DNA of 64,000 nt, taken from the NCBI GenBank assembly GCA_963767735.1, contig CAVYES010000004.1:527342-591341 (forward strand), in the 5' to 3' direction. The notes under the pieces are model-generated. The model had not been told where the DNA came from, ran no database searches, and worked only from the letters and a program-made list of their open reading frames with translations. This DNA is from Candidatus Bathyarchaeota archaeon (GTDB taxonomy: Archaea; Thermoproteota; Bathyarchaeia; Bathyarchaeales; Bathycorpusculaceae). Below, one piece after another: positions 31,173-36,770 of the stretch; the stretch's first letter is position 1, and each line of letters opens with the position of its first letter. A program made the translations under genes and the position numbers.

Positions 31173-31390
31173 TTGAAGCAAAAGCAAAATCAATCAAACA
31201 ATAAGGCATGGTTGAAAAGCAGAAACAAAAAAAACTTTGGCGCAATATCTCCAAATAAATGGATAATCAATGCTTGAAGAAAACAGAGACACGGAAAATT
31301 CAATTGAACAAAACTCAACACGTTAATTTTTAGTAATTTCGTTATTTGACGATAAATCCTCTGGTGCTAGTGCTCAGACCGAATTGAGAG

Positions 31391-31465
31391 TGGGCCGGAC
31401 CGGATTCGGACCGGCGACCTTCTGCACGTCAAGCAGATGTCCTAACCAGGCTAGACGACCGGCCC
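31391..31465 (-). tRNA. tRNA-Val(GAC), intronless, CCA not encoded
   Basis: GGGCCGG/CCGGCCC acceptor stem; TCTGC-TTGACGT-GCAGA anticodon arm; T arm. Confidence 0.95.
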
Positions 31466-33103: not shown

Positions 33104-33481
33104 ATGGTGCAGGACAATTTCAAACCGGTGGTAGTCTGGCTTATACTTAATGGAAAAACAGAAGAAGCGCTTACACTGCTAGCAAAAAACTACAAAGTTA
33201 ACGTTCCCACCCTAAAAGTAGGCTTACCGAAAGGACACAAAATTAAAGCGTTCGGATGTTACACCAACAAAAACGAAACCATTTCAGTGCTAAACAGCGA
33301 TATATTGGCAAATCCCTTTGTGATTATCCACGAGTTCTATCATCATCTACGAAGCAAAGGCGTAGATAAAATGCATCGGGGCACGGAGAAAAACGCTGAC
33401 AAATTCGCAGTTGAATTCCTGCGTGAATATGAAATGGCAGCAAAAAGGGCTCAGCAGATTACTCAAAATTTTCGTCTTTAG
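33104..33481 (+). CDS. Small HExxH zinc metallopeptidase-like protein
   Basis: IIHEFYHH...E..AD.FA. Confidence 0.75.
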   Translation: MVQDNFKPVVVWLILNGKTEEALTLLAKNYKVNVPTLKVGLPKGHKIKAFGCYTNKNETISVLNSDILANPFVIIHEFYHHLRSKGVDKMHRGTEKNADKFAVEFLREYEMAAKRAQQITQNFRL

Positions 33482-33887
33482 AATCTTCGCCTATTGGGTT
33501 AGTAATTGTTATTGGCAATTTCTCAGCGTTGCAATCATATGCTGCAATGCAGCCTTTCCCTTCAAATGGGTACCCTACAATCATGAGGATTCTCCCAAAA
33601 AAGTGATTCATGTCCACGTGGCTTGGTGAAATATTTCCTGAGGGATGAGAATGCACCGTGCCTACTAGCGAGAAATCTCCTGAAAACATGTACGGGTTAA
33701 AATTGGCAAACCCGCGTCCATGAGCAGCGAAAGGAGCCAAAACTAGATCCGTTATTTTGATGACGCCTTTGCTTTTTTTGCCCCTTAAGAGCAGAAAACT
33801 TTCCCGCGGGTAAAGCTGCTTAGCACCATTGTAAATGGTATCCAATATATCCTGGGGAACCTCAACAACTATTGATTTTGATGCCAT
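33459..33887 (-). CDS. JAMM/MPN+ metalloprotease
   Basis: PRE...HSHPSG...S..D. Confidence 0.9.
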   Translation of the reverse strand: MASKSIVVEVPQDILDTIYNGAKQLYPRESFLLLRGKKSKGVIKITDLVLAPFAAHGRGFANFNPYMFSGDFSLVGTVHSHPSGNISPSHVDMNHFFGRILMIVGYPFEGKGCIAAYDCNAEKLPITITNPIGEDSKDENFE

Positions 33888-34039
33888 GCCAAGAAAAATG
33901 GCAGTAGTTAGTTAATTACTTTGCTTTAAAACATACTAGTTCTTCCAATTGCTGCTACAAAAGCATCTTCGTAAAAAAATACGCGCAAACATTTTATTGA
34001 GGTAAGAACAGAATTAGCCAATTGGCGCTGGGAAATCGC

Positions 34040-34154
34040 GCCGGGATAATGCTTCGACAATTGTTGGGCATCCCGATGGCAGAGTGGTTAACGCGCGGGC
34101 CTTGAGAGCCCGTGGATCGCAAGGTCCGCATGGGTTCGAATCCCATTCCCGGCG
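34040..34154 (+). tRNA. tRNA-Ser(TGA) with a 30-nt intron (34048-34077) at position 8/9
   Basis: GCCGGGA/TCCCGGC acceptor stem; CGGGC-CTTGAGA-GCCCG anticodon arm; long variable arm; GTTCGAAT; G73; BHB at the intron ends. Confidence 0.88.
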
Positions 34155-34350
34155 CCCTTTTTTCCAATTTTTCTTTTTCAAAAAGGCTCTGGATCTTTAG
34201 TTCCCGTTTGAAAATGAAGCCATAGCTTGCTAGTAAATTGCTTTTTCAATCGATTGGTTATCTCAAGGGCTTGATTTGGAGGGAAATTGGAGCAAAGCTT
34301 TTAAGAATTGTGTAGATAAAAGAACGTTAACAGGGAAACGATGGGCTTAA

Positions 34351-34530
34351 ATGGTGAGATTAAATGTTATGAGGTTCGACACTGTGAGAGGGGCACAGGA
34401 GTTTCTGTTTAAAAAGTCAGGTTACAAAGTTTTCTTTTTTGACCCTTATCTCTACGCTGACCTCAAGAGCCCAGAAAAACACTTTGGTTTCACATTTATT
34501 TCCGATAAAACCTATAATTTAAGGATATAG
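34351..34530 (+). CDS. Putative 59-aa protein upstream of the GT2 gene
   Basis: MVRLNVMRFDTVRGAQEF...LRI*; ends 7 nt before the next ATG. Confidence 0.5.
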   Translation: MVRLNVMRFDTVRGAQEFLFKKSGYKVFFFDPYLYADLKSPEKHFGFTFISDKTYNLRI

Positions 34531-34537
34531 AATAAGC

Positions 34538-35731
34538 ATGATTATTATACTTGATTATTTAATTTCGGTGATTTGGCTTTCTCCTCTTCTATACCTGTTC
34601 ATCTTAGGGTTTGGCGTTCTGTTTAACAGGACAAGAAAGACCGCTCTCTTGAAACAGAAAGGTGAGGTTGATAAAAAAGTTGACAACATTATCTTTCAGA
34701 TACCAACGATTGGTAACGTCAAGTCAGTAAATAAAATATTGGAAACAGTAAAAAACTATGCTTTGCCTATGCCCGTGGAAACCTGGGTAATTATTGAAGA
34801 TTCGGATACACATAAACCTGAATACGTATGCGATAGGGTAGTTGTTGTGCCTCCAGATTTTGAGTGTGAAGACTTGTACAAAGGTCGGGCGTTAGAATAC
34901 GCTCGCAGGTTAAGACAAAAATTAGTTGATGAAGGCAAACTGGGACCAAACTACTTATTGCTTCAAGGTGACGATGATGCGGTGCCTAGCCTTGAGTTTA
35001 TAAAAGAATGCTTAACCGTTCAAGCTGACATTATGATTGGGACAATTACTCCACAAGTAAACGGCGTATGGAACACTATTCTCGACTACGAACGTTGTGT
35101 TGCATGCGGGATCTTCTGCAATTTTTTTACAAATTTGGGGCATCCGCTGTGGGCTCATGGCGAAGGAACCTGCATGAGTGGTCAAGTAGACAGGAACGTT
35201 TCTTATGACATAAGCACATTTACCCATAATACTAAGCACAAGTTGATACTCAACGAAGACTCTTTCTACTTCCACAAAGCTGCAGTAATGGGTTACAGTA
35301 TATTTAATTCGGAAGAAAAAATTTTAATATTGCCGCCATTAACTTTTGCCGATGCAGTAACACAGAGACGCAGATGGGTTTGGGGGCAAATAGCAATTTT
35401 AAAGCAGAAAATGCTGCCTCTTCCAAACAGAATTAGGCTGAGCATAATTGGCTTCTCAGGATTATGGCTATTCTCCATTGGAATGTTAGGGCTGCCACTG
35501 TATTATTTAGGCGTCGTTCAAATACCCGCAGTGCTCTTGCCAGTTCTTTTTACAACTTTAGGCATATGGCTTGCAATTAGAGCCTACACCATTGGAAAAT
35601 GCATGGGCTGGAAACACGCTATAGCAGGCACTGCAGCAAGCTACATAACAGTGGCAATGAATTTTATTGTTCATGTAATTGGACTTGCTAAGGGAGATCC
35701 AAAAAAATTCGAAGTAATCCGCAAAGAATGA
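34538..35731 (+). CDS. Membrane GT2 glycosyltransferase (egghead-like)
   Basis: KGRALEY, DDD, HGEG, ED, QRRRW. Confidence 0.88.
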   Translation: MIIILDYLISVIWLSPLLYLFILGFGVLFNRTRKTALLKQKGEVDKKVDNIIFQIPTIGNVKSVNKILETVKNYALPMPVETWVIIEDSDTHKPEYVCDRVVVVPPDFECEDLYKGRALEYARRLRQKLVDEGKLGPNYLLLQGDDDAVPSLEFIKECLTVQADIMIGTITPQVNGVWNTILDYERCVACGIFCNFFTNLGHPLWAHGEGTCMSGQVDRNVSYDISTFTHNTKHKLILNEDSFYFHKAAVMGYSIFNSEEKILILPPLTFADAVTQRRRWVWGQIAILKQKMLPLPNRIRLSIIGFSGLWLFSIGMLGLPLYYLGVVQIPAVLLPVLFTTLGIWLAIRAYTIGKCMGWKHAIAGTAASYITVAMNFIVHVIGLAKGDPKKFEVIRKE

Positions 35732-35799
35732 TCGCCAAAAACTTGTCAATTATGAAAAAAGACAGCTTGAATTAGCCAGGAATTCTGTACGGTGCTGTT

Positions 35800-36770
35800 C
35801 TATTGTTTCTCGCTTTCTTTTTTTCCTATTAGTGGCAAGCGTCGTTTTTGTATTTCTGGCGTGTTGATTATTTCAAGTATGGTTAATGTGACAACCGCAT
35901 ATATTGGAAGCCAATCGTAGGGGTACATCAGCGATATGGTTGTTCCATTCATTTCACCGTGCAAGAATGAAAATCCTATTCCATAGTAGAAGAAAAAAGG
36001 CAAATTTGTAACAGCAAGAAACGAGACAGCTCCCACAAGAAACGGAAATATACTTTTTCGGTTGTACCATAAAAGCAGCGGCAGCACAAAAAGCGCAGCA
36101 CGCGGATCAAATGAACCAAATGCAAATAGCAATGCTGAGAACCAAGGTCTTTTAGTGAATCCAAAGTACAACGCTCCTAGCAATAAGGTGGTTTGAAGTA
36201 CGTGGGCATTGCCTAAGACATAACCAGCGTAGTAACTGGGGGAGAAGGACTGGGGATTCAAGCTAAAGAACCGGAACAAGAGTAGGTTGAGTGCGTCTTG
36301 ATTTATTGGTGGCGTAGGGAGTGGTTGTATCAAAATAATGATAGCTGCTATAGCGGCGAAAACATAGTTTTTGTCTTTAGCCATTTTGTAAACAAAAAAA
36401 GCCAACGCTGGAATCAAAGCAAGCTGTAATAAGTCAAAAGCAGTAAATGCATTTTGGTAACTTAAGGCTAGAAACGGCGCAAACAGAATCAGGAACGAAG
36501 GAGCATACTTGAAGGTTTGCGGAGCCGGTTGAATCTTGTAATCTCCAGGTTGAACAGCACCCCAATAGATCGTAGTTGGATTATGGAACAAGCGCCATTC
36601 TCCAATGTAGTATGCTGAGAAATCTCTCGCCCATGTAGTCGATTCTGGCTTAAATGTTTCAGGGAATGCAAGGCAAAAGGTGATTGCGTTCAACGCCACG
36701 GCTATGAGGATGACTAAAATGATTTTCTGTTTCTGGGCAAGCTTGATTTATTTTCTTCTCCATCTTCCAT
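35800..36770 (-). CDS. GT87/DUF2029-like membrane glycosyltransferase; probable 1-nt frameshift near 36750
   Basis: DFSAYY, FKYAP..L...P; multiple TM helices. Confidence 0.7.

Follow-up and report, generated by a model that had tools for sequence, protein, structure and literature searches.

A tRNA-Ser(UGA) gene of a Bathyarchaeia archaeon very probably interrupted by a 30-nt BHB intron between positions 8 and 9

Introduction

In its strict archaeal form the BHB motif has two 3-nt bulges that are kept apart by a 4-bp helix (PMC4090602). According to the text of the same review, the BHB of the canonical tRNA intron between positions 37 and 38 continues the anticodon stem, with the remainder of the cloverleaf still folded (PMC4090602). 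Non-canonical BHB introns are known, as far as the consulted parts of the literature go, from Thermoproteales, Thaumarchaeota, Korarchaeota and ARMAN-2 (PMC4090602, PMC3239211, PMC12397907), and the two-subunit EndA is the type of splicing endonuclease with which the same texts link them (PMC4090602, PMC3239211). The running text of the review names the sites 3/4, 20/21, 22/23, 25/26, 29/30, 30/31, 45/46, 53/54, 56/57 and 59/60 and closes this series with “etc.” (PMC4090602). A further body of evidence comes from Asgard archaea, for which the available text of a recent preprint reports many non-canonical intervening sequences in tRNA genes that are often missed by annotators (bioRxiv 10.64898/2026.10.13.758758). 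For Bathyarchaeota or Bathyarchaeia, none of the papers listed in literature searches had tRNA introns as its topic, judged by title and abstract.

Here we describe the tRNA-Ser(UGA) gene of a soil archaeon. Judged from its sequence and from that of its relatives, it is very probably a working Bathyarchaeia gene that is split by a 30-nt BHB intron between tRNA positions 8 and 9. Unlike the non-canonical introns of the review text, this one lies at a site that the text, its figure 2 aside, does not name, and its host belongs to Bathyarchaeia. We found no mention of an 8/9 site in the literature texts that were searched; site numbers written with a slash are unsearchable there, and the main position catalogues, figures and supplements lay outside the search.

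Results

Layout and identity of the gene

The gene occupies positions 34040-34154 of the + strand of the window, i.e. the whole 64,000-nt stretch of DNA that was analysed, and comprises two pieces that together with the insert span 115 nt. Exon 1 (34040-34047, +) holds tRNA positions 1-8, namely the acceptor 5’ strand GCCGGGA, which is read in the sequence at 34040-34046 and is complementary at 7/7 positions to 34147-34153, followed by U8 (T34047); it is the same as the 5’ end of intronless orthologues. The 30-nt insert (34048-34077, +) separates it from exon 2 (34078-34154, +), which carries tRNA positions 9-73 with the D arm, the anticodon arm, a long variable arm, the T arm, the acceptor 3’ strand TCCCGGC (34147-34153) and the discriminator G34154. 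The anticodon TGA (34103-34105, +), which reads UCA and, by wobble, UCG, sits in the only TGA anticodon arm of the genome with a T loop behind it. G73 is a serine identity element, and the TGA anticodon, the stem-loop variable arm and G34154 at position 73 identify the product as a class II tRNA-Ser. The preliminary description had held that removal of 34048-34077 leaves a canonical tRNA-Ser start, and this was borne out by ARAGORN, which recognized the joined exons as a complete tRNA-Ser(tga) whose acceptor stem has 7 bp. The CCA end is not encoded in the gene.

Upstream of exon 1, the A/T-rich box aaacattttatt (33987-33998, +) may be a TATA-like promoter element of the tRNA gene, and an aaacattt-like box is found upstream of the orthologues of relatives, too, at a comparable distance. 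A run of six T (34158-34163, +), three bases past the gene, is by its sequence a likely transcription stop.

Several features of the locus are recorded here in their own right. The D stem contains an A-C mismatch between positions 12 and 23 (34081 and 34092) that is conserved across the genus; T was found at position 23 in two relatives, one from another family (G030) and one a congener (G018). The window also contains, at 31390-31465 on the – strand, an ordinary uninterrupted tRNA-Val(GAC) gene with 58.5 bits over the full Rfam model. A split or permuted tRNA gene was ruled out, as the two exons lie together in the normal order within 115 nt. Self-splicing introns of group I or II have a ribozyme core of hundreds of bases; this class was ruled out as well, the insert being 30 nt long and Rfam seeing only tRNA in the window. 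Inspection of 34048-34077 by eye revealed no box C/D guide motifs (UGAUGA, CUGA).

The BHB motif at the exon-intron junctions

Around the junctions, the precursor can be folded into a strict hBHBh’ form, with two 3-nt bulges on opposite strands, a 4-bp helix between them and flanking helices on both sides. The outer helix h comprises the 2 bp G34040-C34080 and C34041-G34079 (5’ strand 34040-34041, +) and thereby joins tRNA positions 1-2 with 10-11. In the central helix H (5’ strand 34042-34045, +), CGGG of tRNA positions 3-6 pairs with CCCG at 34072-34075, the last paired letters of the intron. The 5’ bulge is ATA (34046-34048, +) and the 3’ bulge is ATG (34076-34078, +), while the 4-bp inner helix h’ (34049-34052 with 34068-34071; 34049-34071, +) closes a small hairpin (34055-34058 with 34063-34066). 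EndA is known to cleave each bulge behind its second nucleotide, which places the predicted cuts after T34047 and after T34077, so that G34078 becomes tRNA position 9. All elements of the earlier reading, i.e. GC/GC, bulge ATG, 4-bp CGGG/CCCG, bulge ATA and ATGC/GCAT, could thus be located.

The motif as such carries little weight. Under a lenient definition (h of at least 2 bp, H of 4 bp, h’ of at least 3 bp, G-U pairs allowed, insert of 12-100 nt) the window contains 1119 and 1116 BHB motifs per strand in comparison to a mean of 1069 in 10 dinucleotide shuffles. Motif frequency was dropped as evidence for an intron due to this count at chance level. Because the BHB motif is no rarer than expected by chance, the case for an intron rests on the comparison with relatives.

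Orthologues without the intron

The gene was searched for in 40 relatives and in this genome and was found in 36 of these 41. Among 30 loci that were read, 29 contain the Ser(UGA) gene, this genome’s included, and in 26 of the 29 orthologous genes the insert is absent. Ten intronless orthologues read GCCGGGATGGCAGAG, which is exactly the predicted spliced joint, and in the others the only differences from it are paired substitutions of the acceptor stem. The genes compared are positional orthologues: a JAB-domain gene flanks 17 of the 29 relatives’ loci, an ORF of 125 aa flanks 16 and an ORF of 416 aa flanks 12. An insert at the same site is present in three of the 29 genes, those of this genome and of two genomes of other families. 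The expectation that cutting after the second bulge letter yields the right product is supported by these data, the predicted 5’ end being equal to that of intronless orthologues of the same genus (10 of the 29 genes).

Unbroken contigs across the insert also bear on the question whether it could be an artefact of assembly or binning that joined two populations. The same sequencing runs do contain intronless versions from co-occurring relatives, which appear as loose ends at 34075 and 34077. However, DNA contigs from three runs of three studies extend without a break from 33800 to 34104 or 34116 and thus cover the first exon, the intron and the beginning of exon 2. Two of these contigs are more than 99% alike and one is about 92% alike with one change in the intron; one of the runs may be the source sample. 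No RNA run was listed among those that contain 33400-35800. The same insert also occurs in 25 other genome records, and an artefact has a negligible probability.

The register of insertion

In the window gene the letters AT precede both cuts; sequence comparison alone therefore cannot place the insert there. The homologues are more informative. The first two letters of the 3’ bulge vary among them (AT, TG, TA, AG, AA or TC), and G9 is constant. Where the 3’ bulge of a relative is TGG, TAG, AGG, AAG or TCG, the 8/9 register is the only one that restores U8, giving U8-G9. A strict BHB in the 8/9 register is foldable in 24 of 26 distinct homologous sequences. The first pair of h’ is A-T in 24 of these 26, and the second is T-A in 23, C-G in two and T-G in one. 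Most letters of h and H were preset by the search pattern, and covariation in those two helices is therefore uninformative.

The same letters permit a second BHB, one base pair over and absent from the preliminary description, with an outer helix of 34040-34042 and 34078-34080, a central helix of 34043-34046 and 34071-34074, and bulges at 34075-34077 and 34047-34049. If EndA mainly used this shifted BHB, 28 nt would be removed and two extra letters would remain between the acceptor and D stems. Folding energies speak for such a use: among the predicted folds of the 5’ portion of the precursor, the shifted BHB has the lowest energy (-16.1 in comparison to -14.4 kcal/mol), it can be folded in 16 of the 26 distinct homologues, and in all 16 it is predicted to be 1.1-1.7 kcal/mol more stable. 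The product, however, would have a 4-nt connector that no intronless orthologue matches, and one of its extra letters would vary by species (T, G, A or C). In addition, the shifted register is missing in 10 of the 26 homologues, while the 8/9 register is kept in 24. The tRNA-Arg(CCU) gene of the same genome, described below, has an intron at 9/10 for which reading by hand gave a single usable register, and the cut rule there leads to the exact joint of the orthologues. Conservation and the sequences of the orthologues thus favour the 8/9 register, and we consider predominant use of the shifted BHB very unlikely.

Conflict between the BHB and the acceptor stem

The 8/9 BHB takes acceptor bases 1-6 and D-stem bases 10-11, so the acceptor stem cannot coexist with it. 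This incompatibility, already pointed out in the preliminary description, follows from the use of the same bases, and the predictions add that the acceptor-stem fold is the more stable of the two by about 8-9 kcal/mol. For the complete 115-nt precursor the predicted energies are -52.5 kcal/mol for the acceptor-stem fold vs. -44.2 kcal/mol for the best BHB fold, with an ensemble difference of 8.9 kcal/mol. When the precursor is considered only up to base 34146, i.e. before the 3’ acceptor strand, the BHB fold is at most 1.7 kcal/mol away from the predicted optimum.

Splicing enzymes and the need for the gene

Two EndA-type genes were found in the genome (PF01974, 100.5 and 73.8 bits). The alpha-like protein has its best matches in crenarchaeal catalytic alpha chains (2cv8_A with E 1.9e-42, 3p1z_B and 2zyz_B) and contains the catalytic His of EHAPY. 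In the second protein a Thr stands where the catalytic His would be, as is expected for a structural subunit. The alpha gene (C2:3-521, equal to L031:3-521) lies at the very start of its contig, and its 5’ end is absent from the assembly. A putative broad-specificity loop with its conserved Lys, of the type to be expected where non-canonical sites are cleaved, was tentatively assigned in this incomplete gene. The two-subunit make-up and the crenarchaeal alpha matches would fit an EndA of broad specificity. A 3’-phosphate RNA ligase, RtcB, is encoded in an open frame of 494 aa (PF01139, 589.5 bits).

A further question was whether the interrupted gene is the only Ser(TGA) gene of the genome. 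ARAGORN, BLAST, a search with the joint pattern and a genome-wide scan for anticodon arms with TGA all answered it in the affirmative for the assembly, which is 94.9% complete; at this completeness, the unassembled part could still contain another Ser(UGA) gene. In 504 long ORFs, UCA accounts for 24.8% of the serine codons, and it is one of the two serine codons that the genome uses most.

These data bear on the possibility that the insert has disabled the gene, leaving an unspliced pseudogene while UCA is read by another tRNA. It would agree with such a loss that most congeners are without the insert (one of 88 has it besides this genome) and that the genome completeness of 94.9% leaves some room for another tRNA. 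Both exons are intact, however, and nearly identical to working orthologues, and within the order three families have kept the same-site insert together with its BHB. The genome yielded no further Ser(UGA) gene, the codon in question accounts for about a quarter of its serine codons, and EndA and RtcB are both encoded. A pseudogene is highly improbable on this evidence, and a working, spliced gene is the reading that we retain.

Distribution and history of the intron

In 185,579 species genomes, a scan with a pattern of the interrupted 5’ end matched at 30 loci. Twenty-five of them are Ser(UGA) genes with an insert at the same site, and 24 of those belong to records titled Bathyarchaeia or Bathyarchaeota; the other five of the 30 are chance matches in bacteria with no tRNA there. 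One of the 25 comes from a record titled Acidoferrum, a bacterium (L046); this record contains an archaeal tRNA-Ser gene with both an 8/9 and a 37/38 intron, and its contig was probably mis-binned. Eight of the 25 homologues (L038, L039, L044, L046, L053, L054, L059 and L062) have a further insert directly behind the anticodon, where the canonical 37/38 site lies. In another homologue (L049:301-362) the first 10 letters of the gene, i.e. exon 1 and two intron letters, are doubled 13 nt apart ahead of the remaining intron, which gives an insert of 44 nt; the doubled letters may be a duplication scar.

Within the order, the interrupted pattern occurs in 22 of 401 sampled genomes, this genome included. 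It was found in 13 of 247 genomes of the own family, in three of 25 and five of 60 genomes of two other families and in none of the remaining nine families, and it occurs in 13 of 117 genera. The intronless joint pattern was found in 224 of the 401 genomes of the order and in 80 of the 88 of the genus, without a match in this genome; as it also matches other serine tRNAs, these counts are an upper bound.

A tree of two flanking proteins (21 rows, 254 columns) has mostly weakly supported forks. On it, four intron-bearing genomes, among them this one, form successive early branches beside the clade of 13 intronless congeners, and a fifth intron-bearing genome clusters with three intronless ones. 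Two changes explain the presence of the intron on this tree, a number that was equalled by one of 500 label shuffles. The tree fits an old intron that was lost at least twice, and transfer is also compatible with it. We regard the 8/9 intron as probably old in this order of Bathyarchaeia and repeatedly lost.

Other introns in the genome

The tRNA-Arg(CCU) gene (C6:581931-582035, equal to L070:232-336) is interrupted at 9/10 by an intron of 30 nt that has a strict BHB. Twenty-two loci were read for this gene, and it was seen in 20 of them. Three congeners, this genome included, have the 9/10 intron, and an insert at this position was also seen in one genome from a different family. In six congeners the gene is intronless and shows the exact predicted joint; 10 genes carry a different insert, which lies in the D loop. 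The acceptor stem of tRNA-Arg(CCU) has an A-C mismatch between positions 6 and 67 that is conserved in the genus; in the precursor, A6 pairs with a U within the BHB. Taken together, the 8/9 and 9/10 introns mean that the connector between the acceptor and D stems was used more than once in the lineage. With Ser(UGA) and with Arg(CCU), which depending on the congener is uninterrupted, interrupted at 9/10 or interrupted in the D loop, the genus is a good system for the gain and loss of archaeal tRNA introns.

Over the whole genome ARAGORN found 42 tRNA genes, with none for Phe, Tyr, Gly(UCC), Val(CAC), Glu(CUC), Ser(GCU) and several Leu; Rfam adds partial matches. By eye, a Leu(UAA) gene with an insert in the D arm was recognized at C9:60118, and a Met gene with several inserts, one of them near the 3’ end, at C5:383415. 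It is likely that many more tRNA introns are hidden in the genome. Two tRNA-like pieces with UCU anticodon loops were observed as well (C7:287459-287512 and C5:397205-397259, both on the – strand). Acceptor 5’ strands were not found for either piece within 90 nt upstream, and the pieces could represent gene fragments, pseudogenes or genes with a deeper split.

Consequences for annotation

The preliminary description had warned that standard scanners may mis-call the gene, and both programs that we applied do so. On the window, ARAGORN reports only 34073-34153 as the gene and gives it an acceptor stem with mismatches. The Rfam tRNA model covers the interrupted gene at model positions 6-65 only, with 37.1 bits, in comparison to 57.5 bits and model positions 1-71 for two intronless orthologues. 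Three intron-bearing genes scored 37.1, 37.1 and 34.8 bits, all of them with partial matches. tRNAscan-SE 2.0, according to its publication, lengthens candidate genes by 60 nt so that introns close to their ends are included (PMC8450103).

The practical value of our findings therefore lies in annotation, as ARAGORN and Rfam both cut the Ser(UGA) gene short. A Bathyarchaeia genome annotated with scanners that shorten the gene can seem to be without its only tRNA for UCA, or to have a damaged copy of it.

Discussion

Splicing of the precursor could proceed as follows. Acceptor bases 3-6 would pair with the four letters that end the paired part of the intron and are a copy of the acceptor 3’ strand, and D-stem bases 10-11 would pair with acceptor bases 1-2. 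Two 3-nt bulges would result, 4 bp apart, and the two-subunit EndA would cut after the second letter of each. RtcB would then ligate U8 to G9, and only after this joining could the acceptor and D stems and the cloverleaf form. Because the BHB excludes the more stable acceptor stem, the cut is most likely made while the transcript is nascent and its 3’ acceptor strand not yet produced, or on a minor conformer that is captured by EndA. Splicing, its register and its timing at the RNA level are what we infer from genome sequences and folding models.

The understanding of BHB splicing is left unchanged by the 8/9 intron. Its mechanism appears ordinary and the intron is conserved, while the site is unusual and possibly unlisted. 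What the gene offers is a natural test case in which a splice motif competes with the acceptor stem for shared bases and in which two foldable registers lie one base pair apart. Since close relatives are intronless, the mature product is known by comparison.

It is tempting to combine the 8/9 intron of Ser(UGA) and the 9/10 intron of Arg(CCU) into an uncatalogued class of connector introns in Bathyarchaeia, whose splicing would be forced to take place before the tRNA folds, most likely on the nascent transcript. The 3’ end of a connector intron would copy the acceptor 3’ strand, and the splice motif could therefore exist only as long as the cloverleaf is unfolded. We put this forward tentatively and think it rather unlikely in this full form. 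If such a class were real, one of two competing registers would also have to be selected when Ser(UGA) is spliced.

Compared with known systems, the intron resembles the described non-canonical introns in being a short BHB-flanked insert away from 37/38 in a host with a two-subunit EndA, as far as the literature texts allow the comparison. With the canonical 37/38 intron it shares the motif and the predicted enzymes, EndA and RtcB. Unlike the BHB at 37/38, the 8/9 BHB consumes bases 1-6 of the acceptor stem and bases 10-11 of the D stem. The acceptor-stem intron at 3/4 in some Thermoproteales tRNAs, which the review text calls “an extreme case”, likewise lies very near the 5’ end (PMC4090602). 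For introns so near the 5’ end, at 3/4 as at 8/9, the BHB must use the acceptor strand. Compared by site alone, the 3/4 intron lies five positions further towards the 5’ end and within the stem, whereas 8/9 lies in the connector. The Asgard inserts, according to the available text of the preprint, were found via compact relatives, as was the 8/9 intron, in a different lineage (bioRxiv 10.64898/2026.10.13.758758).
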